Shown here: positions 2,685 to 16,721 of the stretch, in pieces
How positions within the stretch are numbered: the stretch's first letter is position 1
How the letters are laid out: the number at the start of each line of letters is the position of its first letter
Program-made: the position numbers and the translations under genes
Notes under the pieces: generated by a model
The model's input: the letters and a program-made list of their open reading frames with translations, nothing else
The model's database searches: none
What the model was told of the DNA's origin: nothing
Source: a virus
Lineage: Duplodnaviria > Heunggongvirae > Uroviricota > Caudoviricetes
IMG/VR virus record: IMGVR_UViG_2617270976_000017
Span: 1-16,721 of that record
Reading direction: 5' to 3' (one strand)
Length of the DNA: 16,721 nt

Positions 2685-3233
2685 ATGAAGGTTAATAAAA
2701 AGAGGCTTGCCGAAATTTTTAACGTGGACCCGCGGACGATTGAACGCTGGCAGTCTCAGGGGCTCCCTTGCGTCTCCAAAGGCAGTAAGGGCATTGAATC
2801 TGTATTTGATACTGCCATGGCAATTCAGTGGTATGCGCAGAGGGAAACTGATATCGAAAACGAAAAGCTCCGCAAAGAACTGGCCGATTTGCGTGCGGCA
2901 GCGGAGTCAGATTTACAACCCGGCACCATTGACTATGAACGCTACCGGCTCACAAAAGCGCAGGCAGATGCGCAGGAACTGAAAAATGCCCGTGAAGACG
3001 GAGTGGTGCTGGAAACTGAACTATTTACCTTCATTCTGCAACGTGTGGCACAGGAGATTTCGGGGATACTTGTGCGTGTGCCGTTGACATTACAGCGTAA
3101 ATATCCGGACATTTCACCATCACACCTTGATGTGGTGAAAACTGAAATCGCGAAAGCCTCCAATGTTGCAGCTAAGGCCGGTGAAAACGTGGGCGGGTGG
3201 ATCGATGATTTCAGACGCACAGAAGGCAGCTAA
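2685..3233 (+). CDS. nu1: terminase small subunit (lambda Nu1 homolog)
   Basis: [12 protein letters not shown]...[12 protein letters not shown]...[49 protein letters not shown] aligns along its length with lambda gpNu1 as recalled. Start taken at ATG 2685 (the ORF track's 2640 uses an upstream TTG). Confidence 0.9.
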
Positions 3234-5133
3234 TGCAGCCGGTGCGATAGCTACAGGGCTTTTATCTCTCATTATTCCTGTTCCACTGACGACAGTTCAG
3301 TGGGCCAATAAACATTATTACCTTCCTAAAGAGTCGTCTTATACCCCGGGGCGGTGGGAAACACTGCCGTTTCAGGTTGGCATCATGAACTGTATGGGCA
3401 ACGATTTGATTCGCACTGTTAACCTGATTAAATCTGCCCGTGTTGGTTATACAAAGATGTTGCTGGGAGTGGAGGCTTATTTTATTGAGCATAAATCACG
3501 CAACAGCCTTCTTTTTCAGCCCACGGACTCAGCTGCTGAAGATTTTATGAAATCTCATGTTGAGCCAACGATAAGGGATGTTCCTGCATTGCTGGAGCTG
3601 GCTCCATGGTTCGGAAGAAAACACCGCGATAATACGCTCACCCTGAAGCGTTTTTCCTCCGGTGTGGGTTTCTGGTGTCTGGGGGGAGCGGCAGCAAAAA
3701 ACTACCGTGAAAAATCCGTGGATGTGGTTTGTTATGACGAGCTTTCCTCGTTCGAACCGGATGTTGAAAAAGAGGGTTCGCCAACCCTGCTGGGGGATAA
3801 ACGTATTGAGGGCTCTGTATGGCCAAAATCCATTCGCGGCTCGACGCCTAAAATCAAAGGCTCCTGCCAGATCGAAAAAGCCGCTAACGAGTCGGCACAT
3901 TTCATGCGTTTTTATGTGCCCTGTCCGCACTGTGGGGAGGAGCAGTATCTGAAATTTGGCGATGATGCCTCGCCTTTCGGTCTTAAGTGGGAGAAGAATA
4001 AGCCAGAAAGTGTTTTCTACCTTTGTGAGCATCATGGCTGTGTGATCCATCAGTCTGAGCTTGACCAGAGTAACGGGCGGTGGATCTGTGAAAACACGGG
4101 CATGTGGACTCGTGACGGTCTGACATTTTTCAGCGCCGCGGATAATGAAATTCCGCCGCCGCGCTCCATCACATTCCATATCTGGACGGCGTACAGTCCG
4201 TTCACCACCTGGGTACAGATTGTCTATGACTGGCTGGATGCACTGAAAGATCCCAACGGCCTGAAAACCTTTGTGAACACCACGCTGGGCGAGACCTGGG
4301 AAGAGGCCGTGGGCGAAAAACTCGATCACCAGGTGCTGATGGATAAGGTTGTGCGTTACACGGCTGCGGTGCCTTCCCGGGTGGTTTATCTGACGGCGGG
4401 CATTGACTCGCAGCGAAACCGTTTTGAGATGTATGTCTGGGGATGGGCTCCGGGAGAGGAAGCCTTTCTGGTGGATAAAATCATCATTATGGGGCGTCCC
4501 GATGAGGAAGAGACGCTGTTACGTGTGGATGTGGCGATCAACAAAAAATACCGCCATGCAGACGGAACCGAAATGACCATTTCCCGTGTCTGCTGGGACA
4601 CCGGGGGGATCGATGGCGAAATTGTCTATCAGAGGTCAAAAAAACACGGTGTTTTCCGGGTGCTGCCGGTAAAAGGTGCATCTGTTTATGGCAAGCCGGT
4701 GATCACCATGCCAAAAACCCGCAATCAGCGGGGCGTGTATCTGTGCGAAGTGGGGACGGACACCGCAAAAGAAATTCTCTATGCCCGTATGAAAGCCGAT
4801 CCCACGCCTGCGGATGAAGCCACGTCGTATGCCATCCGTTTTCCTGATGATCCGGAGATTTTTTCGCAGACAGAGGCGCAGCAACTGGTGGCGGAAGAGC
4901 TTGTGGAGAAGTGGGAAAAAGGAAAGATGCGTCTGCTGTGGGATAACAAAAAGCGGCGTAACGAAGCGCTGGACTGCCTGGTGTATGCCTACGCGGCATT
5001 ACGTGTGTCCGTGCAACGCTGGCAGCTTGATCTGGCTGTACTGGCAAAATCCCGGGAAGAAGAGACGACCCGGCCAACCCTTAAAGAACTGGCAGCGAAG
5101 CTGTCCGGAGGAGTGAATGGTTACAGTCGCTGA
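3205..5133 (+). CDS. A: terminase large subunit (lambda gpA homolog)
   Basis: Strong colinear similarity to lambda gpA ([24 protein letters not shown]..., [33 protein letters not shown]..., [10 protein letters not shown]...). Start placed at ATG 3205 (MISDAQ...), overlapping the Nu1 3' end as in lambda. Confidence 0.95.
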
Positions 5134-5323
5134 ACTGCAGGCGCTGCGTCAGGCGCGCCTTGATTTATTAACCGGTAAACGGGTGGTGTCTGTCCAGAAA
5201 GATGGTCGCAGAATTGAATATACGGCAGCTTCTCTGGATGAGCTTAACCGGGCGATCAATGATGCGGAGTCGGTACTGGGGACAACCCGCCGTCGCCGTC
5301 GTCCGCTGGGAGTGAGGTTATGA
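5117..5323 (+). CDS. W: head-tail joining / head completion protein (lambda gpW homolog, 68 aa)
   Basis: 68-aa ORF with LLTGKRVVSVQKDGRRIEYTA core matching lambda gpW; overlaps A stop and B start (ATGA) as in lambda. Confidence 0.9.
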   Translation: MVTVAELQALRQARLDLLTGKRVVSVQKDGRRIEYTAASLDELNRAINDAESVLGTTRRRRRPLGVRL

Positions 5324-7029
5324 AACGAACGCCTGTCCTGATTGATGTGAACGGCGTTCCGCTTCGGGAGAGCCTCAGCTACAACGGTGGCGGTGCAGGA
5401 TTTGGCGGGCAAATGGCAGAGTGGTTGCCACCCTCGCAGAGTGCCGATGCGGCCCTGCTGCCCGCGTTGCGTCTGGGGAATGCCCGTGCAGATGATCTGG
5501 TGCGCAATAACGGAATAGCGGCCAATGCGGTGGCCCTGCATAAGGATCACATTGTCGGGCATATGTTTCTGATTAGCTACCGTCCGAACTGGCGCTGGCT
5601 GGGGATGCGGGAGACCGCGGCAAAAAGTTTTGTCGATGAGGTGGAGGCGGCCTGGTCAGAATACGCAGAAGGGATGTTTGGTGAGATCGACGTGGAAGGG
5701 AAACGCACGTTTACGGAATTTATCCGTGAAGGTGTGTGCGTTCATGCGTTTAACGGCGAAATCTTTGTGCAGCCGGTCTGGGATACGGAGAGTACGCAAC
5801 TGTTTCGTACGCGTTTTAAAGCCGTGAGTCCGAAACGGGTGGACACGCCAGGACACGGTATCGGGAACCGTTTTCTGCGGGCCGGTGTGGAGGTTGATCG
5901 ATATGGCCGTGCCGTTGCGTACCATATCTGTGAGGATGATTTTCCTCGCTCCGGGAGTGGACGATGGGAACGGATCCCGCGTGAACTACCCACCGGGCGT
6001 CCGGCCATGCTGCATATTTTCGAGCCGGTGGAGGACGGGCAGACCCGTGGAGCCAATCAGTTTTACAGCGTTATGGAACGGCTGAAGATGCTCGATTCCC
6101 TGCAGGCAACACAGCTTCAGTCGGCCATAGTGAAGGCGATGTATGCAGCGACGATTGAAAGTGACCTTGATACCGAAAAGGCCTTTGAATATATCGCCGG
6201 TGCGCCGCAGGGGCAGAAGGATAATCCGCTTATTAATATTCTGGATAAGTTCTCCACCTGGTATGACACGAATAGCGTGACGCTGGGCGGTGTCAAAATT
6301 CCGCACCTTTTCCCCGGTGATGATCTGAAACTTCAGACCGCGCAGGATTCAGACAATGGATTTTCGGCGCTTGAACAGGCGCTGCTGCGGTATATCGCCG
6401 CCGGTCTTGGCGTTTCCTACGAACAGTTGTCCCGTGATTACTCGAAGGTCAGTTACTCAAGTGCCCGCGCATCCGCCAATGAGTCGTGGCGCTATTTTAT
6501 GGGGCGGCGAAAATTTATTGCGTCCCGGCTGGCCACGCAGATGTTTTCCTGCTGGCTGGAAGAGGCACTTCTTCGGGGGATTATTCGTCCGCCACGGGCA
6601 CGGTTTGATTTTTATCAGGCGCGATCAGCCTGGTCACGGGCTGAGTGGATTGGAGCCGGAAGAATGGCCATTGACGGGCTCAAGGAGGTTCAGGAATCAG
6701 TGATGCGCATTGAGGCCGGACTGAGCACGTATGAGAAAGAGCTGGCGCTGATGGGCGAGGATTATCAGGACATTTTCCGCCAGCAGGTCAGGGAATCTGC
6801 AGAGCGGGAAAAAGCCGGACTCTCACGTCCGGTGTGGATAGCGCAGGCGTATCAGCAGCAGATAGCGGAGAGTCGCAGGCCGGAAGAGGAGACAGTCGCG
6901 GATGAATATGACCAGCCGACGTCCGATATCACGAAGGATAAATGCAGCAAATGCCTGAGCGGCTGTAAGTTTCGCAATAACGTCGGCAACTTTGGCGGCT
7001 TCCTTTCCATTAACAAACTTTCGCAGTAA
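5320..7029 (+). CDS. B: portal protein (lambda gpB homolog) whose last codons are replaced by an in-frame fusion to the 3' end of tail gene L
   Basis: Residues 1-~525 colinear with lambda gpB (GGGAGFGGQ..., FEPVEDGQTRGANQFYSVME..., LRYIAAGLGVSYEQLSR...); the final 44 residues VADEYDQPTSDITKDKCSKCLSGCKFRNNVGNFGGFLSINKLSQ match the C-terminus of lambda gpL. Confidence 0.85.
   Translation: MKRTPVLIDVNGVPLRESLSYNGGGAGFGGQMAEWLPPSQSADAALLPALRLGNARADDLVRNNGIAANAVALHKDHIVGHMFLISYRPNWRWLGMRETAAKSFVDEVEAAWSEYAEGMFGEIDVEGKRTFTEFIREGVCVHAFNGEIFVQPVWDTESTQLFRTRFKAVSPKRVDTPGHGIGNRFLRAGVEVDRYGRAVAYHICEDDFPRSGSGRWERIPRELPTGRPAMLHIFEPVEDGQTRGANQFYSVMERLKMLDSLQATQLQSAIVKAMYAATIESDLDTEKAFEYIAGAPQGQKDNPLINILDKFSTWYDTNSVTLGGVKIPHLFPGDDLKLQTAQDSDNGFSALEQALLRYIAAGLGVSYEQLSRDYSKVSYSSARASANESWRYFMGRRKFIASRLATQMFSCWLEEALLRGIIRPPRARFDFYQARSAWSRAEWIGAGRMAIDGLKEVQESVMRIEAGLSTYEKELALMGEDYQDIFRQQVRESAEREKAGLSRPVWIAQAYQQQIAESRRPEEETVADEYDQPTSDITKDKCSKCLSGCKFRNNVGNFGGFLSINKLSQ
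6895..7029 (+). pseudogene. L: 3' remnant of tail tip gene L (last ~44 codons) fused to B
   Basis: C-terminal gpL sequence including the Cys-rich CSKCLSGC block; immediately followed by K as in lambda gene order L-K-I-J. Confidence 0.7.
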
Positions 7030-8316: not shown

Positions 8317-8388
8317 TATTATTTACTCATGTTCTAACTGATTTAATATTTATATCGAACACTGATAATTATTCTATTGGTTAGCTAT

Positions 8389-8727
8389 ATGAACAAAACG
8401 ATTTTATTCTGCACGATTATTGCCTTAACAGGATGTAAATCTTTGGATTACGTAAAATCCGGAAAACCTGTAATGGAAGGTAATTCATTAAAAAATATTG
8501 ATGAATTGTCAGGCTGCATATCCAGACAATGGGCTGGTAATGGAACACCTATAACATCCCTTCCTATTGAGAATGGGGTAAGCCTTTTAGTTCCACAGGC
8601 TATGGGGGGATATGATGTTGTGCTTGATATCAAAAAAGCAGGAAATGGCAGTAGTTTTACTCTTTATGAACGTGTACCAGCATTAACGCCAAAAATTTTT
8701 GCTGATAGTGTTAATGCATGTAAATAA
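8389..8727 (+). CDS. small predicted lipoprotein (signal peptide MNKTILFCTIIALTG-C, lipobox LTGC); accessory gene inserted between I and J
   Basis: ORF with N-terminal hydrophobic segment ending in L-T-G-C; markedly AT-rich relative to flanking I and J; followed by a hairpin terminator. Start placed at ATG 8389; weak RBS. Confidence 0.6.
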   Translation: MNKTILFCTIIALTGCKSLDYVKSGKPVMEGNSLKNIDELSGCISRQWAGNGTPITSLPIENGVSLLVPQAMGGYDVVLDIKKAGNGSSFTLYERVPALTPKIFADSVNACK

Positions 8728-8750
8728 TAGTTAATCCTGCTGTAACTCAT

Positions 8751-8780
8751 GAGCCGCCTTTTGGGCGGCTTTGTTGTTTA
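8751..8780 (+). terminator. rho-independent terminator-like hairpin (GAGCCGCC-TTTT-GGGCGGCT) plus T-rich tail
   Basis: 8-bp GC-rich stem (one mismatch) with 4-nt loop followed by TTGTTGTTT, directly after the lipoprotein stop. Confidence 0.55.
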
Positions 8781-8793
8781 TGGAGTGTGAGGA

Positions 8794-10186
8794 ATGGGTA
8801 AAGGAAGCAGTAAGGGGCATACCCCGCGCGAAGCGAAGGACAACCTGAAATCCACGCAATTACTGAGTGTGATCGATGCCATCAGCGAAGGGCCGATTGA
8901 AGGTCCGGTGGATGGATTAAAAAGCGTGCTGCTGAACAGTACACCGGTGCTGGACAGTGAGGGGAATACCAACATCTCCGGTGTCACGGTGGTGTTCCGG
9001 GCAGGTGAGCAGGAGCAGACACCGCCGGAGGGATTTGAATCCTCCGGTTCCGAGACGGTGCTGGGTACGGAAGTGAAATACGACACGCCGATCACCCGGA
9101 CCATCACGTCTGCAAACATCGACCGTCTGCGCTTTACCTTCGGTGTGCAGGCTCTGGTGGAAACCACCTCAAAGGGGGACCGGAATCCGTCGGAAGTCCG
9201 CCTGCTGGTTCAGATACAACGTAACGGTGGCTGGGTGACGGAAAAAGACATCACCATTAAGGGCAAAACCACCTCGCAGTATCTGGCCTCGGTGGTGGTG
9301 GGTAACCTGCCGCCGCGCCCGTTTAATATCCGGATGCGCAGAATGACGCCGGACAGCACCACAGACCAGCTGCAGAACAAAACGCTCTGGTCGTCATACA
9401 CCGAAATCATCGATGTGAAACAGTGCTATCGGTGCCGGTATTGAGAATACGCCAGCAGGAATGCAGAGTCAGGTGCTGCTGGCGGCAGACAGGATTGCGA
9501 TGATTAATCCTGCGAATGGCAACACAAAGCCGATGTTTGTTGGTCAGGGCGATCAGATATTTATGAATGAAGTGTTCCTGAAATATCTGACGGCTCCCAC
9601 CATTACCAGCGGCGGTAATCCTCCGGCATTTTCCCTGACACCGGACGGGCGGCTGACGGCGAAAAATGCCGATATCAGCGGTAACGTGAATGCGAACTCC
9701 GGGACGCTCAACAACGTCACGATTAACGAGAACTGTCGGGTTCTGGGAAAATTGTCCGCGAACCAGATTGAAGGCGATCTCGTTAAAACAGTGGGCAAAG
9801 CTTTCCCCCGGGACTCCCGTGCACCGGAGCGGTGGCCATCAGGAACCATTACCGTCAGGGTTTATGACGATCAGCCGTTTGACCGGCAGATTGTTATTCC
9901 GGCGGTGGCATTCAGCGGCGCTAAACATGAGAAAGAGCATACTGATATTTACTCCTCATGCCGTCTGATAGTGCGGAAAAACGGTGCTGAAATTTATAAC
10001 CGTACCGCGCTGGATAATACGCTGATTTACAGTGGTGTTATTGATATGCCTGCCGGTCACGGTCACATGACACTGGAGTTTTCGGTGTCAGCATGGCTGG
10101 TAAATAACTGGTATCCCACAGCAAGTATCAGCGATTTGCTGGTTGTGGTGATGAAGAAAGCCACTGCAGGCATCACGATTAGCTGA
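8794..10186 (+). pseudogene. J: tail tip/host specificity gene J, disrupted: N-terminal ~210 codons (8794..9444) joined out of frame to the C-terminal ~240 codons (9461..10186); central ~2 kb missing
   Basis: 8794..9444 matches lambda gpJ residues 1-~212 nearly residue for residue and then stops (..VKQCYRCRY*); 9461..10186 in another frame matches the gpJ C-terminal region (..[32 protein letters not shown]..) with a divergent extreme C-terminus. Confidence 0.8.
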
Positions 10187-10253: not shown

Positions 10254-10853
10254 ATGCGTAAATTATGTGCTGTTATTTTGTCCGCAGTAGTCTGGCAGGT
10301 CGCCGCTGCTACGCCAGCGAGTGCAGCAGAACATCAGTCCACGCTGAGCGCGGGGTATCTCCATGCCTCGACGAACGTTCCCGGTAGTGATGATCTGAAC
10401 GGGATTAACGTGAAATACCGTTATGAGTTTACGGACGCGCTGGGGCTGATTACGTCCTTCAGTTATGCCAATGCTGAGGATGAGCAAAAAACGCGCTACA
10501 GCGATACCCGCTGGCATGAAGATTCCGTGCGTAACCGCTGGTTCAGCGTGATGGCGGGGCCGTCTGTACGCGTGAATGAATGGTTCAGCGCGTATGCGAT
10601 GGTGGGTGTGGCTTACAGCCGTGTGTCGACTTTCTCCGGGGATTATCTCCGCGTAACTGACAACAAGGGGAAAACGCACGATGTGCTGACCGGAAGTGAT
10701 GACGGTCGCCACAGCAACACGTCTCTGGCGTGGGGGGCTGGCGTGCAGTTTAATCCGACCGAATCCGTGACCATTGACCTTGCTTATGAAGGTTCCGGTA
10801 GTGGCGACTGGCGAACGGATGCATTTATTGTTGGTATCGGATACCGTTTCTGA
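10254..10853 (+). CDS. lom: outer membrane beta-barrel protein Lom (Ail/Lom/PagC family)
   Basis: Signal-peptide-like N-terminus, alternating beta-strand pattern, C-terminal ...GIGYRF; position between J and stf as in lambda. Confidence 0.85.
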   Translation: MRKLCAVILSAVVWQVAAATPASAAEHQSTLSAGYLHASTNVPGSDDLNGINVKYRYEFTDALGLITSFSYANAEDEQKTRYSDTRWHEDSVRNRWFSVMAGPSVRVNEWFSAYAMVGVAYSRVSTFSGDYLRVTDNKGKTHDVLTGSDDGRHSNTSLAWGAGVQFNPTESVTIDLAYEGSGSGDWRTDAFIVGIGYRF

Positions 10854-10958
10854 CAACAGACGCCGATTTATCTTCTGTAAATATTGTTATGATACGCAGG
10901 TTCATCCACCTTATGGGGTGAACTGCGTTTGAGGAAACGTAAAGTTACACTGTCCTGA

Positions 10959-10990
10959 AGCCCGTGGCGTCACTGCTGCGGGCTTTTTTT
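10959..10990 (+). terminator. terminator-like stem (AGCCCG...CGGGCT) followed by T7 tract
   Basis: 6-bp stem with a long (14-nt) loop and TTTTTTT immediately downstream; loop is long, so call is weak. Confidence 0.4.
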
Positions 10991-11004
10991 ATTGGTGGAA
11001 AAGT

Positions 11005-13911
11005 ATGACAGTAAAAATTTCTGGCGTGCTTAAAGATGGCACAGGAAAACCAGTACAGAACTGCACCATTGTGCTGAAGGCCAGACGAACCAGCAGCACG
11101 GTGGTGGTGAACACGGTGGCCTCTGAAAATCCGGATGAAGCCGGACGTTACAGCATGGATGTTGAGCATGGTCAGTACAGCGTCACCCTGCTGGTTGAAG
11201 GTTTTCCGCCTTCACATGCCGGGACCATTACCGTCTATGAAGGTTCCAGACCAGGTACGCTGAATGATTTTCTCGGTGCCATGACGGAGGATGATGTCCG
11301 ACCGGAGGCACTGCGCCGCTTTGAGCAGATGGTAGAAGAGGTGTCACGTAACGCCTCCGCGGTTGCACAGAATACGGCAGCCGCGAAAAAATCAGTCAGC
11401 GATGCCAGTGCATCAGCCAGCGAGGCGGCAACTCATGCAACCGATGCTGCAGCCTCAGCACGTGCCGCCAGCACGTCAGCCGGACAGGCCGCGTCGTCGG
11501 CTCAGTCAGCGTCTTCCAGCGCAGGAACGGCATCGACAAAGGCCCGTGAAGCAGCAAAAAGTGCTGCTGCTGCAGAGTCATCAAAAAGCGCGGCAGCTAC
11601 CAGCGCCAGTGCCGCGAAAACGTCAGAAACGAATGCCGCAGCATCACAAAAATCGGCAGCCACTTCTGCATCCACAGCGACCACGAAGGCGTCAGAAGCT
11701 GCCACCTCGGCACGGGGTGCGGCGGCCTCAAAAGAGGCAGCGAAATCTTCAGAAACGAATGCATCATCAAGTGCCAGTAGTGCAGCTTCCTCGGCAACGG
11801 CGGCAGGAAATTCCGCGAAGGCGGCAAAAACGTCCGAGACGAACGCTAAGTCTTCTGAAACAGCAGCGGGACAGAGCGCCTCAGCTGCGGCAGGTTCAAA
11901 AACAGCGGCTGCATTATCTGCCAGTGCCGCGTCAACAAGTGCCGGGCAGGCCTCAGCCAGTGCCACCGCCGCCGGAAAATCGGCAGAAAGCGCCGCATCA
12001 TCCGCTTCAACAGCCACAACGAAGGCTGGCAAAGCCACTGAGCAAGCCACTGCAGCAGCGAGGTCTGCTTCTGCAGCAAAAACCTCTGAAACAAATGCAA
12101 AGACTTCAGCAGACAATGCTGCTTCCTCTAAGGCGGCAGCCGCATCGTCAGCCAGTTCAGCGGCGTCATCGGCATCATCTGCGTCTGCTTCAAAAGATGA
12201 GGCGACCAGACAAGCGTCAGCAGCGAAAGGTAGTGCCACGACAGCAACAACGAAAGCATCAGAGGCAGCTGGTAGTGCGACGGCGGCAGCTCAGAGCAAA
12301 AGTACGGCGGAATCCGCGGCAACGCGCGCCGAGACAGCAGCAAAACGGGCAGAGGATATTGCATCCGCCGTGGCGCTGGAGGATGCGAGCACGACGAAAA
12401 AGGGGATAGTACAGCTCAGCAGTGCGACCAACAGCACTTCCGAGTCACTGGCGGCAACGCCAAAAGCGGTTAAGGCGGTAATGGGTGAAACGAACAAGAA
12501 AGCGCCCTTAAATAGTCCTGCACTGACCGGAACGCCAACAACACCAACTGCGCGACAGGGAACGAATAATACCCAAATCGCAAGCACGGCTTATGTTATG
12601 GCTGCGATCGCTGCCCTCGTGGACTCGTCGCCTGACGCACTGAATACGCTGAACGAGCTGGCTGCGGCGTTGGGCAACGACCCGAATTTTGCGACCACCA
12701 TGACTAGCGCGCTTGCGGGTAAGCAACCGAAAGATGCCACCCTGACGGCGCTGGCCGGGCTTGCTACTGCGGCAGACAGGTTTCCGTATTTTACGGGGAA
12801 TGATGTTGCCAGTCTGGCAATCCTGACAAAAGTTGGGCGGGATATTCTTGCGAAATCGACCGTTGCCGCCGTTATCGAATACCTCGGTTTACAGGAAACG
12901 GTAAACAAGGCTGGTAACGCCGTTCAGCGTTCCGGCGATAAAATGACCGGAGAACTGAAAATTGGCACGGTGAATGCGCTGCGAATTTTCAATGATGCCT
13001 TCGGTCTTATTTTCCGTCGTTCAGAAGATTTTCTTCATTTCATTCCGACGGCTGAAGGACAAGGCGAAAACGGTGATATCGGCCCATTAAGGCCATTCGC
13101 TATAAATCTGAGAACAGGTGCTATATCTGTCAGCCACGGGGCCAAAATTGATGGTGGGCTGGCGCTTGGTACAGATAACGCACTGGGCGGTAATTCCATT
13201 ACTCTCGGAGATAACGACACTGGTATTAAACAGGGCGGCGACGGTGTCCTTTTATTCTATTCAAATGGACAACTGGCATTTGGGCTTCAACCCGCATCTG
13301 CTGATTTTTATAAGCGGGTTGCATATATTCATCAGGGAATAATTCCTGATGGAAGTGGCGCATTTGCAGACCAGTTGAATAATGCCACCGCGCCTTTTGT
13401 TCAGACGCAGTTTGCCTGGAATCCCACTCCTGGTGGTCATTACGTGCCGATAGTTAAGGGCTTGTCCATTCGCAATGGACAGGGCTATCCCGGCGCGGTC
13501 AGCTTTGGGTATTTACTGACAGAACAGTATGGATTTCCGGTTCCATGTATTCATATGCGTGGCGATGGAGGTAATGATGCTTTATGGTATTTTAACCCGA
13601 ACGATAAATCCTTTATTTCACCGGGTGCTCTTATTGCGGGTGGCGTCCGTTATAACACCGATGGAAATATATTTGGTGGGTGCTGGGGTTCAAACTTAAA
13701 TGATTACCTGAATAGTTCTTTTATCAGAAATGTGCGTCTGGGAGGCAGACGTTCTGACACATTATATCGCGGAGGACTTTGCGAACCAGGTAATGGTCAT
13801 GTGACAACAGGATTGCAAATTATTGGTGAGGTTGATGGAGATGACTGGATGGTGTCACGACCACTACAAAAATACATTTCTGGTAACTGGTATAACGTTG
13901 AACAGGCATAG
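11005..13911 (+). CDS. stf: side tail fibre protein (Stf family), 968 aa, with Ala/Ser-rich repetitive shaft
   Basis: N-terminus MTVKISGVLKDGTGKP.QNCTIVLKARRTSSTVV and ...YSVTLLVEGFPPSHAGTITVYE match the conserved Stf N-domain; long A/S-rich repeat region; C-terminal tip ...PLQKYISGNWYNVEQA. Confidence 0.9.
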   Translation: MTVKISGVLKDGTGKPVQNCTIVLKARRTSSTVVVNTVASENPDEAGRYSMDVEHGQYSVTLLVEGFPPSHAGTITVYEGSRPGTLNDFLGAMTEDDVRPEALRRFEQMVEEVSRNASAVAQNTAAAKKSVSDASASASEAATHATDAAASARAASTSAGQAASSAQSASSSAGTASTKAREAAKSAAAAESSKSAAATSASAAKTSETNAAASQKSAATSASTATTKASEAATSARGAAASKEAAKSSETNASSSASSAASSATAAGNSAKAAKTSETNAKSSETAAGQSASAAAGSKTAAALSASAASTSAGQASASATAAGKSAESAASSASTATTKAGKATEQATAAARSASAAKTSETNAKTSADNAASSKAAAASSASSAASSASSASASKDEATRQASAAKGSATTATTKASEAAGSATAAAQSKSTAESAATRAETAAKRAEDIASAVALEDASTTKKGIVQLSSATNSTSESLAATPKAVKAVMGETNKKAPLNSPALTGTPTTPTARQGTNNTQIASTAYVMAAIAALVDSSPDALNTLNELAAALGNDPNFATTMTSALAGKQPKDATLTALAGLATAADRFPYFTGNDVASLAILTKVGRDILAKSTVAAVIEYLGLQETVNKAGNAVQRSGDKMTGELKIGTVNALRIFNDAFGLIFRRSEDFLHFIPTAEGQGENGDIGPLRPFAINLRTGAISVSHGAKIDGGLALGTDNALGGNSITLGDNDTGIKQGGDGVLLFYSNGQLAFGLQPASADFYKRVAYIHQGIIPDGSGAFADQLNNATAPFVQTQFAWNPTPGGHYVPIVKGLSIRNGQGYPGAVSFGYLLTEQYGFPVPCIHMRGDGGNDALWYFNPNDKSFISPGALIAGGVRYNTDGNIFGGCWGSNLNDYLNSSFIRNVRLGGRRSDTLYRGGLCEPGNGHVTTGLQIIGEVDGDDWMVSRPLQKYISGNWYNVEQA
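11350..12370 (+). repeat. intragenic tandem-repeat region of stf encoding the Ala/Ser-rich shaft (recurring ..AAKTSETNA.. units)
   Basis: Repeated nucleotide blocks such as gcgaaaacgtcagaaacgaatgc / gcaaaaacgtccgagacgaacgc / gcaaaaacctctgaaacaaatgc recur at ~11615, ~11745, ~11825, ~12075. Confidence 0.6.
12872..12897 (+). other. 26-bp recombination (crossover) site of a Gin/Pin/Cin/Hin-type inversion system, inside stf
   Basis: TTATCGAATACCTCGGTTTACAGGAA closely resembles the gix/pix-type crossover sites as I recall them and is an inverted copy (22/26) of the site at 15951..15976. Confidence 0.65.
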
Positions 13912-13926
13912 CCATCAGGAGAATAT

Positions 13927-14454
13927 ATGCAACATCTGAAAAATATTACCGCCGGAAACCCCAAAACCATTGAGCAGTATCAGCTTACGAAAAAAGCTGG
14001 CGTTATCTGGCTATATACAGAAGACGGTAAAAACTGGTATGACGAATTAAAAAACTTTCAGGATGATACTTTAAAAATAGCTTATGACCAGAAGGGGATT
14101 ATTCGTTGTATTGAGAAAGACGTATCAATGCTTAACCCTGACGGGTTAAGTGTTGTTGAGTTACCGAATATAACAGCCAACCGTCGCGCCGATATCTCGG
14201 GAAACTGGAAGTTTCTGGATGGTAAAGTAGTAAAGCGGGAATATACAAAACAGGAACTGCAACAGCAGGCAGAGTTACAAAAAGCCGCTTTGCTTTCCGA
14301 AGCGGAGTCTGTGATTCAACCGCTGGAACGTGCTGTCAGACTGAATATGGCAACTGATGAGGAACGCACACGACTGGAATCATGGGAACGCTACAGCGTT
14401 ATGGTCAGCCGTGTGGATACTGCAAAGCCTGAATGGCCACAGAAACCAGAATAA
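13927..14454 (+). CDS. tfa: tail fibre assembly protein (Tfa family)
   Basis: 175-aa ORF directly after stf with good RBS (CAGGAGA); N-terminal half matches the conserved Tfa pattern and is paralogous to the inverted ORF at 14485..15018. Confidence 0.85.
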
Positions 14455-14465
14455 CAACAAATTAA

Positions 14466-14485
14466 GGCCCGTACGGGCCTTTTCT
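14466..14485. terminator. bidirectional terminator hairpin (GGCCCG-TA-CGGGCC) between the convergent tfa genes
   Basis: Perfect 6-bp GC stem with T-rich flanks on both strands, located between the stop codons of the two convergent tfa genes. Confidence 0.5.
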
Positions 14486-15018
14486 TATTCTGGTGGTTCC
14501 GGGAATGTTACAGGAAGAACCGAGGTATCAGTTGTCTCAACCTGTTGCACGTATCGCATCCAGTTCATCAGTTGCTGTCTGTCTGAATCAGTGATAATCC
14601 CCAAAGTAAGCTGTGTTTGCCAGAACTGCGTTTTTTCTCTGGCCTGCTGTAATAATATTTTTTTCTGGTTTTCCGTCTGTAGGCGCAACTCTTCTTCGGT
14701 ATATACACGTTTAATGACTGCGCCATCTTTAAACATCCATTTACCTGAGTCGTCAGCACGCCGGTTGGCGGTAATATCAGGAATCTCAACGACGCTATAA
14801 CCTTCAGGGTTAAGTGTGGAGGCATCTTTGGTTATGGCAACAATAATATTATTTTCATCGTAAACAATCTTTATGGTGTCTGGCTGAAAGTTTTTCACTT
14901 CCTCATACCAGTTTTTTCCGTCCTCAGAGTAAAGCCAGATAACTCCGTGTTTCTTTGTTAACTCATACTGTTCCAGTGTTTTAGCATTACCCGCTTTTAT
15001 GTTCTTTAAGTGCATCAT
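14485..15018 (-). CDS. tfa: tail fibre assembly protein, second copy in inverted orientation (Tfa')
   Basis: [45 protein letters not shown]... is clearly paralogous to the + strand Tfa ([45 protein letters not shown]...). Confidence 0.85.
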
Positions 15019-15019
15019 A

Positions 15020-15523
15020 TTAAACGCTCGCTACATTATACCAGGTGCCATTTATATACTTTTGAACGGGTCTGTAATAAACGCCCGCTATATTATCGGC
15101 AGAGTTAGACCCTGTATCCTGAACATTAATACCAGACAATACATGACCTGAAGGGCACTGGAAATTCCATGTTTGCCAGTTGTTCACTCCATAATATTGC
15201 TGTGAACCAAGTCGAACATCTTTCACATAACGGGAATCAAAGTTACCGTAATCCGAGGGGTTAACACGCCCTGTAATATTTATGGTTTTATTACTTTGAA
15301 TGCTTCCGGAGACAAAGCGCATAACATGGACGTTATTAGCATAAACATCCAGATTACCATCGCCATTTTGTTTAAAGCCCGTGTCATTATCACCCAATAC
15401 AATCGAATTACCGCCAAGAGCACTGGATGTTCCGATACCCAGTGCACCATTCAGTTGACCACCAGATAACGGCAGTGATAGAAACAGAAGCCACTGGAGC
15501 ACCTCAAAAACACCATCATACAC
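15020..15523 (-). CDS. stf: alternative side tail fibre C-terminal (receptor-binding) segment, inverted orientation (StfE-like fragment)
   Basis: Contains ..[22 protein letters not shown].. and C-terminal ..[16 protein letters not shown], paralogous to the stf tip (..ALGGNSITLGDNDTGIKQGGDG.. / ..PLQKYISGNWYNVEQA); stop abuts tfa' start. Confidence 0.75.
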
Positions 15524-15587
15524 TAAATCAGTAAGTTGGCAGCATCACCCACGGGCTGAACGATAAAAAATACCGCCATTTTTATAA

Positions 15588-15962
15588 TTAATCCAAAAAC
15601 TGAGCTGCAGGACAACTTCCTTCTCCCATATAAAAATGAATAATTAACGTTGATGCACCACTAATAGTTGCGTTATAGGCTCCGCTACTCCAGTTCCATC
15701 CAACTGCTTTATCATTCGCAACGGTGCTTCCTGTTTTCCCTAAGGCAAACGCACCAACATGACTTGCTTTTAATGTGATATCGGAGGAACCATCAAAAGC
15801 CACATTGCTTATTTTCCTGGCAGTTTTTAATTTTGCAGCTGTAGAAGCATTGCCGGATAGTTCACCAGAAAGGCCACCGCTGAATGTTTGTCGATTAGTC
15901 CAGGTATTCGCTGTACTGAGTAACGGTATTTTCTCCCCGCTTGTGCCGAGTTCTCGTAAACC
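15588..15962 (-). pseudogene. proximal part of the alternative stf variable segment, in frame with the crossover site but separated from the distal part (15020..15523) by stops in all frames
   Basis: Reading the minus strand from the crossover site at 15962 gives an open frame (GLRELGTSGEKIPLL...GSCPAAQFLD) ending at TAA 15588-15590; the downstream tip ORF is in a different frame. Confidence 0.45.
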
Positions 15963-15976
15963 GAGGTTTTAGATAA
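15951..15976 (+). other. second 26-bp crossover site, inverted relative to 12872..12897
   Basis: TTCTCGTAAACCGAGGTTTTAGATAA; its reverse complement TTATCTAAAACCTCGGTTTACGAGAA matches the stf-internal site at 22/26 positions with an identical central ACCTCGGTTTAC core. Confidence 0.65.
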
Positions 15977-16030
15977 TGGCGGTTTCTGGCCTGCATGGCA
16001 TGATTTGTGCTTTTGGACGGGAGATTCAGC

Positions 16031-16436
16031 GTGCTGATTGGCTATGTAAGGGTATCAACAAATGACCAGAATACAGATCTGCAACGAAACGCTCTTGTTT
16101 GTGCAGGATATGAACAAATATTTGAAGATAAATTAAGCGGAACAAGGACAGGCCGACCTGGATTAAAACGTGCTTTAAAGCGCCTTCAAAAAGGTGACGC
16201 ACTGGTTGTCTGAAAACTGGACTGACTGGTTCACTGTATGCGGCATCTTGTCGTGCTGGTGGTGGAAGCCTAGAAAAAGTATCGGGTGTTGCTGAACCGT
16301 GTTGATACATCAACTGCACCTGATATTGAGTGGCCTACGAACCCTGTCAGGGAGTAATCATTGGGATTATGCCGCAGCACGTCTTAAGCAAGAACGTGCT
16401 GCGGTTGGATGGTGAACTTTCGATAGTGCGAGTATT
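16031..16436 (+). pseudogene. pin: Pin/Gin/Cin/Hin-family serine DNA invertase, inactivated (first ~60 codons intact, then multiple in-frame stops)
   Basis: VLIGYVRVSTNDQNTDLQRNALVCAGYEQIFEDKLSGTRTGRPGLKRALKRLQKGDALVV matches the invertase N-terminus including the catalytic Ser context; TGA at 16211-16213 falls where a Trp is expected, followed by further stops while residual similarity (..MRHLVVLVVE.., ..RVDTST..) persists. 3' end approximate. Confidence 0.65.
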
Positions 16437-16472: not shown

Positions 16473-16721
16473 TTAGTGAACAAACCACTCGTCAGCAGAC
16501 TCCCAGGTATCTTTCAGAGTTTCCTGAACAAAAGTTTTAGCTGAATCTTTATCGGCGGTGCGCGTAACAGAAAGGCCATCGTTGCTGGTGGCTTTTACGA
16601 TCACCTCTACATCGTCATAACGTTTACTGATGCGTCGGGTTAATTCTTCCTTTAACGCATCCACAGCACCGTTTGGCATTTTAGTGATTTTTTCTTTAGC
16701 GATACAGATCTCAACACGCAT
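16473..16721 (-). CDS. DinI-family protein (82 aa)
   Basis: [12 protein letters not shown]...[17 protein letters not shown]...LSV....[26 protein letters not shown] matches the DinI pattern as recalled (MRIEVTIAK..., ...ETWESADDWFV); start codon is the last three bases of the window. Confidence 0.8.

Follow-up and report, generated by a model that had tools for sequence, protein, structure and literature searches.

A Mu G-type invertible tail-fibre cassette, orphaned and decaying, in a defective lambdoid prophage

The stf gene of the defective lambdoid prophage analyzed here most probably contains an invertible tail-fibre cassette of the Mu G type that has become an orphan, is decaying, and can be flipped only in trans; we put the probability of this reading at about 0.9. 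Tail-fibre inversion systems have been textbook knowledge since Mu G, P1 C, and e14 P, and this particular cassette is already known from Phi4, a nearly identical prophage of E. coli ST131. We call the switch orphan and decaying because the resident invertase is dead and the alternative fibre tip (tip B) is broken by a frameshift and by a scar derived from the end of IS1. Within the window, by which we mean the whole stretch of 16,721 nt that was analyzed, the prophage is defective: it is without head and tail genes, one of its ORFs is a portal::gpL fusion, and its J gene is fragmented.

Crossover sites and layout of the segment

Sites of the Gin/Pin/Cin/Hin (Din) family are 26 bp long and form an inverted pair, each site consisting of two imperfect 12-bp half-sites that flank a 2-bp core, and religation in Din inversion needs the same central dinucleotide at both sites. 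The initial annotation had proposed that two 26-mers of the window are inverted copies of each other (22/26) and resemble Gin/Pin/Cin crossover sites. Their coordinates, 12872-12897 and 15951-15976, and the 22 matching positions were confirmed, and a search for inverted repeats extended the pair to 32 nt (12866-12897 and 15951-15982, 84% complementary, 27/32). Alignment also bore out the family resemblance: the left site matches Mu gixL/gixR at 24 of 26 positions, P1 cixR at 21 of 26, and the e14 site at 18 of 26, and the right site matches Mu gix at 23 of 26. The remaining 26-mers of the window match the left site at no more than 17/26. When the whole window was scanned with the Mu gix 26-mer, allowing up to three mismatches, these two sites alone were recovered, in opposite orientation, against a chance expectation of 0.00 from 200 shuffles. 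The central dinucleotide is common to both (TC on the left and GA, which is TC on the other strand, on the right), and in Mu the site centres coincide with the annotated boundaries of the G segment (AF083977). We also considered and rejected a Min/p15B-type system with multiple inversions, as further sites within three mismatches of Mu gix were sought in the window and not found. A separate inverted repeat (I1, 13859-13898 and 15033-15072) is the conserved C-terminal end common to both fibre tips; the remaining inverted repeats of the window were dismissed as weak chance pairs.

The segment bounded by the two sites extends from 12885 to 15963 (3.08 kb). ORFs and Pfam matches agree with the content first proposed for it, namely the 3' end of stf and tfa on one strand and tfa' and an alternative stf tip on the other (Table 1). 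The site within stf had been described as lying in frame at ..VIEYLGLQET.., and we indeed found the left site read as ..VIEYLGLQE.. within a 968-aa ORF (11005-13911) that is open across it. Flipping the segment in silico fused the constant part of stf to the other tip without a change of frame (..VIEYLGLRELGTSGEK..), so that the site leaves the stf reading frame open in either orientation. Both chaperone genes, tfa and tfa', are intact. Tandem Repeats Finder reported no repeats in the Ala/Ser/Thr-rich part of stf.

Table 1. Features of the cassette and its surroundings, in window coordinates
Feature	Position	Strand	Evidence or remark
stf (side tail fibre), constant N-terminal part, codons 1 to ~627	11005-12884	+	Upstream of the crossover point; Pfam phage_tail_N, E=1.4e-69
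Left crossover site (gix/pix type)	12872-12897	+	TTATCGAATACC-TC-GGTTTACAGGAA; the stf frame runs through it
Variable tip A of Stf, ~342 codons, intact	12885-13911	+	Frame open to 13911; predicted to be expressed in the present orientation
tfa, tail fibre assembly chaperone of tip A, 175 aa	13927-14454	+	Pfam Caudo_TAP, E=7.8e-35; 77% aa identity to Mu U
tfa', chaperone of tip B, 177 aa, intact	14485-15018	-	Pfam Caudo_TAP, E=6.2e-32; 69% aa identity to Mu U'
Tip B, the alternative end of Stf; pseudogene in the window	15020 to ~15963	-	Stops and frame changes in three-frame translation
IS1 left-end remnant, 74 nt (IS1 nt 1-74)	15476-15549	-	About 77 bp of tip B replaced; 74-nt exact match
+1 frameshift in tip B	15595-15599	-	A5 here, GAAA in EC958 (+ strand)
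Right crossover site	15951-15976	-	Minus-strand reading TTATCTAAAACC-TC-GGTTTACGAGAA
Gin/Pin-family serine invertase pseudogene	16031-16290	+	GTG start, 60 intact codons including the catalytic Ser region, then TGA and more stops
Putative enhancer-equivalent	16049-16120	+	Positional homologue of the annotated P1 cin enhancer (L005 6679-6750)
tfa 3' remnant fused to the invertase remnant	16277-16357	+	Translation (YRVLLNRVDTSTAPDIEWPTNPVRE*); EC958 annotation: tail fiber assembly protein fragment

The invertase remnant and the lesions of tip B

A functional serine invertase gene adjoining the segment is absent, and only the remnant of 60 codons is found. Its match to the Pfam Resolvase N-terminal domain is confined to residues 3-60, it agrees with Mu gin at 57 of 60 aa and 174 of 180 nt, and the same gene is annotated in EC958 and JJ1886 as an incomplete recombinase. 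Its presence shows that the segment once had a gin-like gene beside it. In this family, recombination depends on an enhancer that acts with Fis and sits within the 5' end of the gene for the invertase. The equivalent stretch of the window matches Mu gin at 70 of 72 positions and P1 at 55 of 72; from this near-identity to Mu gin and from homology to the P1 annotation we infer a possible enhancer function. The cis elements, that is, both sites and the enhancer-equivalent, look intact. Because the resident invertase gene is dead while these elements look intact, inversion here requires an invertase provided in trans. A possible source is the intact Phi1 invertase of EC958, at a locus named by Forde et al. 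(2014), which has 85% identity to Gin. Among 5426 complete E. coli genomes, only 3160 had a Gin-family 3' half that could be recognized at the DNA level.

Tip B contains a 72-bp patch that differs from EC958. Comparison of this patch with inverted, reversed, or shuffled native sequence was negative; instead, alignment of the scar to a 769-bp contig (L012) identified it as the left end of IS1. An exact 55-mer from the scar occurs in more than 120 genome stretches, in many of them at nt 19-73 of 768-bp contigs. The second lesion, the frameshift, leads to a premature stop (..AAQFLD*), whereas the tip B alleles of EC958 and JJ1886 are intact. The initial annotation had envisaged that inversion swaps the receptor-binding end of the fibre. 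The in-frame fusion to the other tip supports this proposal, with the qualification that in the window, where tip B is broken, Stf would be truncated. Because a flip would be predicted to give a truncated Stf of 751 aa, its outcome would be to turn Stf on or off and not to exchange one tip for another. The disruption of the alternative tip and the decay of the switch had not been part of the earlier description. We also looked for the IS1-scar allele in complete E. coli genomes, none of which carries it and none of which has it flipped; the lineage with the scar may be frozen.

Orientation in related genomes and the explanations considered

In ST131 genomes the locus is 99.5% identical to that of the window and present in both orientations. 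This evidence comes from sister genomes; none of the complete E. coli genomes covers at least 80% of the window. The invertible segment of EC958 Phi4 has been listed with exactly these sites (Phi4_5prime and Phi4_3prime in Table 3 of that paper, letter-identical to our left and right site, respectively) and with PacBio contigs and reads in both orientations, and the truncated Phi4 invertase and its consequence, action in trans, were noted as well (Forde et al., 2014, PLoS One, PMC4134206). Between EC958 and JJ1886 the flanks are collinear, the interior is reverse-complemented (99.8%), and the half-sites are reciprocal hybrids. The exchange point maps within the 26-mers both in this pair and in two contigs of strain O25b:H4, whose chromosome has one orientation and an extra 32.7-kb contig the other. 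The complete genomes comprise about 232 in the orientation of the window and about 209 in the flipped one, and among strains with related names, U12A and U13A-U15A have opposite orientations at about the same chromosomal coordinates.

Serine invertases of the Gin/Pin/Cin family bind two inverted 26-bp sites, assisted by Fis on the enhancer, and cut at the central TC/GA dinucleotide, after which the strands rotate and are religated. If this mechanism applies here, the 3.08-kb segment between 12885 and 15963 would invert and join the 627 constant stf codons in frame to either C-terminal tip, each with its own chaperone gene behind it. The present orientation is the only productive one, with the 968-aa Stf intact and Tfa encoded, and a flip would require a Gin-family invertase from another prophage or a plasmid in the cell.

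Apart from the shortness of the repeat, no point favors the 26-mers being a chance repeat or a mere substrate of homologous recombination, and we give this reading practically no credence. It is refuted by the near-identity of the sites to Mu gix, by the two gix matches found where none was expected, and by the JJ1886-EC958 exchange, which lies inside the 26-mers and leaves hybrid half-sites; RecA recombination is inefficient on a repeat as short and imperfect as 27/32. A far more serious possibility, which we rate at somewhat under even odds, is that the same cassette is fixed in its orientation in a host that makes no compatible invertase, and that its sites, enhancer, and tip B are decaying. 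The resident invertase is a pseudogene, the two inactivating lesions of tip B together with the missing head and tail genes suggest relaxed selection, the scarred allele was flipped in none of the complete genomes, and no Gin-family 3' half could be detected in about 42% of the complete genomes of E. coli. Yet the two 26-bp sites and the enhancer-equivalent show no damage and have the same sequence as in the ST131 locus, where the segment flips despite the same truncated invertase. In addition, PMC4134206 cites literature according to which Gin, Pin, and Cin can substitute for one another, and Pin action across prophages has been shown, as PinQ inverts the e14 segment in trans to give an adsorption-blocking Stf chimera, StfE2 (PMC12529663).

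The PinQ precedent would also fit the idea that the bacterium profits from Stf/Tfa expression toggled in trans, for instance in that other phages are kept from adsorbing. The persistence of intact stf (968 aa), tfa, and tfa' in a defective prophage points the same way, but it may reflect recent decay only, and the flipped state would here give a truncated product; we consider such a benefit very improbable. It seems similarly improbable that the orphan cassette, with its dead invertase and its intact sites and enhancer, is kept in a virion-incompetent prophage and driven in trans by the invertase of another element as a host-level Stf on/off switch, for instance one that modulates the adsorption of other phages.

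We therefore retain the orphan, decaying cassette that is flippable in trans as the preferred reading. Its significance beyond annotation is small, inversion at the locus having already been shown in EC958 and action in trans being implied by the truncated invertase. In annotations, the region is best entered as an invertible segment in which the invertase gene and the alternative tip are both pseudogenes, and assemblies of such strains may contain orientation heterogeneity or spurious extra contigs. It also raises the modest question of whether hosts make use of orphan switches in defective prophages or whether these are merely decaying.

Likeness to known invertible cassettes

The window shares with EC958 Phi4 both 26-bp sites, tip A, tfa, tfa', and the fusion of a truncated invertase to the remnant of a tfa gene, with 99.5% nt identity over window positions 10629-16411, the scar apart. 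The two differ in tip B, where the +1 frameshift and the IS1-end scar are found in the window. Moreover, lom is intact in the window but interrupted by IS21 in ST131, the downstream flank has a DinI-like gene in the window and a SAM methyltransferase in ST131 Phi4, and the deletion pattern of the upstream morphogenesis region is different.

The likeness to the Mu G segment extends from the sites and the two chaperones to the size (3.08 kb in the window, 3.06 kb in Mu), the common gene order S-U-U'-S', and the first 180 nt of gin, which include the enhancer-equivalent. In contrast to Mu, the cassette resides in a lambdoid stf (phage_tail_N) and not in Mu S, its invertase is dead, and tip A has just 26% aa identity to the variable part of Mu S, although the start (LGLQETVN) and the end (WYNV) are conserved. 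P1 C/Cin and e14 P/PinE follow the same logic with related sites, and in P1 the invertase gene likewise adjoins the segment and is annotated with an internal enhancer. Their sites and invertase genes are less similar to the sites and remnant of the window than those of Mu, and their segments measure 4.2 kb (P1) and 1.8 kb (e14).

Crossover sites and layout of the segment

A repeat search of the window returned an inverted 32-nt pair (12866-12897 and 15951-15982) that is 84% complementary with a spacing of 3,053 nt. The initial annotation had placed two 26-bp crossover sites here, at 12872-12897 (left) and 15951-15976 (right), as inverted copies sharing 22/26 positions; both sequences are present there, and direct matching of the two 26-nt cores gave the same identity. 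Both cores have a 12-2-12 layout, the left reading TTATCGAATACC-TC-GGTTTACAGGAA and the right, on the other strand, TTATCTAAAACC-TC-GGTTTACGAGAA, with the central dinucleotide TC common to both. As had been claimed, the left site lies in frame within the side tail fibre gene stf, where it reads ..AAVIEYLGLQETVN.. in an intact 968-aa ORF (11005-13911) that bears a prophage tail fibre N-terminal domain.

We compared the sites with annotated reference elements, including Mu (AF083977), in which TTATCCAAAACCTCGGTTTACAGGAA is present twice with centres that coincide with both annotated G-segment boundaries. Identity of the left site is 24/26 to Mu gix, 21/26 to P1 cixR and 18/26 to the crossover site of e14; the resemblance to Gin/Pin/Cin-family sites proposed earlier is therefore confirmed. 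A search for the Mu gix 26-mer with ≤3 mismatches found only the left and right sites in the window, in opposite orientation, whilst 200 shuffles gave a chance expectation of none. Sites, frame and gix scan together bear out the observation of a segment bounded by an inverted pair.

The segment measures 3.08 kb, compared with 3.06 kb for Mu G, and its gene order is that of Mu S-U-U'-S'-gin but set on a lambdoid stf. Each of the two alternative C-terminal ends of Stf (tips A and B) lies beside its cognate chaperone gene, tfa or tfa'. The anatomy, the Mu-like lengths and the gin-like identities thus indicate a Mu S-U-U'-S'-gin layout grafted onto lambdoid stf. The proposed content, with the stf 3' end and tfa opposed to tfa' and a second tip on the other strand, holds, except that tip B is broken here.

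Features of the invertible segment and its right flank
Feature	Position	Strand	Basis or likeness
stf 3' 342 codons (tip A)	12885-13911	+	open reading frame
tfa, Caudo_TAP	13927-14454	+	77% identical to Mu U
tfa', Caudo_TAP	14485-15018	-	69% identical to Mu U'
second tip (tip B)	15020-~15963	-	translation
Gin-like serine recombinase gene	16031 onward	+	immediately right of the right site

The low-complexity Ala/Ser/Thr-rich part of Stf (11300-12450) gives rise to long but spurious ORFs on the opposite strand and in alternative frames, for example 11363-12409 (+) and 11502-12239 (-). Tandem Repeats Finder detected no array at 11300-12450.

Orientation of the segment in E. coli genomes

We built the flipped sequence in silico by inversion at the central dinucleotide and searched complete E. 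coli genomes with 1.2 kb across the flipped left junction (coverage ≥80%). The flipped orientation occurs in ~209 genomes, with top matches 99.6-99.7% identical, and the window orientation in ~232; ST131 accounts for the majority of the matches listed in both sets. In the ST131 genomes EC958 and JJ1886 the same prophage end adjoins ompW/trpA and the flanks are collinear and 99.4-100% identical; the interior of one is the exact reverse complement of the other at 99.8% identity. The JJ1886 sites are the reciprocal hybrids TTATCGAATACC-TC-GGTTTACGAGAA and TTATCTAAAACC-TC-GGTTTACAGGAA, and the exchange therefore happened within the 26-mers. The chromosome of O25b:H4 has the window orientation and an extra 32.7-kb contig carries the same locus flipped, and U12A is flipped versus the unflipped U13A, U14A and U15A, at about equal chromosomal coordinates. 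The suggested swap of the fibre end by inversion stands in that the stf frame stays open through the modelled hybrid site (..VIEYLGLRELGTSGEKIPLL..), but the flipped stf of the window would stop after 751 codons.

This locus is the Phi4 prophage of EC958 (Forde et al., 2014; PMC4134206), for which Table 3 gives the segment ends as ccgccgTTATCGAATACCTC GGTTTACAGGAA and ccgccaTTATCTAAAACCTC GGTTTACGAGAA and the invertible segment as 3,106 bp, and the PacBio assembly yielded a separate contig in which this segment has the other orientation. The invertible cassette is therefore already known, both as a kind and as this individual element.

Decay of the cassette and possible supply of invertase in trans

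The recombinase gene is 57/60 identical to Gin over codons 1-60 (174/180 to gin over the first 180 nt) and is a pseudogene, with a TGA after codon 60 followed by more stops; the remnant joins a tfa 3' end (YRVLLNRVDTSTAPDIEWPTNPVRE*) by ~16277. The same truncation is annotated in EC958 and JJ1886. Kept within the remnant is a homologue of the annotated P1 cin enhancer (16049-16120; 70/72 to Mu gin), and because this putative enhancer is retained the cis requirements for inversion in the window appear intact. The remnant (16031-16357) is a mosaic, gin-like (97%) over the first 180 nt, nearer to e14 pinE at nt ~200-260 and ending in the 3'-terminal 27 codons of tfa; a second copy of this tfa end (88% identical) lies further downstream in the ST131 genomes.

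Tip B is unbroken in EC958 and JJ1886, whereas in the window it has a +1 frameshift at 15595-15599 and an exact 74-nt IS1 left end (IS1 nt 1-74; 15476-15549) in place of ~77 bp of coding sequence. The latter is a solo IS1-end scar, presumably left by an IS1 insertion and a subsequent adjacent deletion; it is absent from all complete E. coli genomes of the collection.

In the Gin/Hin family, invertase dimers bind both sites, a Fis-bound enhancer takes part, and cleavage at the 2-bp core is followed by subunit rotation and religation. By analogy, the cassette of the window would invert by the same course, with dimers on its sites, the Fis-enhancer, core cleavage, rotation and religation.

The invertase gene of Phi4 has been described as severely truncated, so that inversion must be in trans, with the Phi1 invertase as suggested source (PMC4134206). 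The recombinase at the EC958 Phi1 locus is intact (199 aa, 85% identical to Gin). A search by DNA similarity detects the 3' half of Gin-family genes in 3160 of the 5426 complete E. coli genomes, so trans supply is common, not universal. We read the window locus as a Gin-type cassette that is orphaned and decaying and can be flipped in trans only (probability about 0.9). The interpretation of the initial annotation is supported, qualified in that the switch is orphaned and decayed in this copy. On this reading, the odds that the cassette still flips in the strain of the window are roughly even. That the host has domesticated the cassette would be an improbable alternative; it draws on the finding that the Pin enzyme of one cryptic prophage inverts the segment of another, with an effect on phage adsorption (PMC12529663).

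Phi1 is a tail-module prophage of EC958 with baseplate genes V, W/gp25 and I, and its crossover sites are nearly identical to those of the window. Its silent tip (2819-3248 of the EC958 Phi1 sequence analysed), beside the intact invertase, is 97.9% identical to tip B at ~15550-15980; tip cassettes are therefore common to unrelated prophages of one genome.

Remainder of the prophage

The window corresponds to nt 3-16723 of contig JNQT01000033.1 (GCA_000704325.1), and its prophage is unable to form virions. In one 569-aa ORF (5320-7029), residues 29-397 match the lambda-family portal and residues 525-567 the C-terminal end of minor tail protein L, implying in-frame deletion of the genes for head, tail tube and tape measure; this exact fusion is recorded in 2 contigs only. 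The tail tip protein gpJ (8377-10186) is split into three ORFs of 116, 216 and 241 aa, whereas JJ1886 has one long ORF (CDS 1479445-1482918), so J has been deleted or frameshifted.

The lom gene (10254-10853) is intact in the window and broken by an IS21-family element in ST131. Upstream of Nu1, 34-2274 contains accessory genes: part of a SASA-type carbohydrate esterase, an ORF of 206 aa with a Phage_P4_cII match on record and, encoded on the opposite strand, a 355-aa 'Beta protein' (PF14350). The region may be a hotspot for morons or defence genes. The window ends (16473-16721) in a DinI-like gene (-), a position taken in the ST131 relatives by a SAM-dependent methyltransferase.
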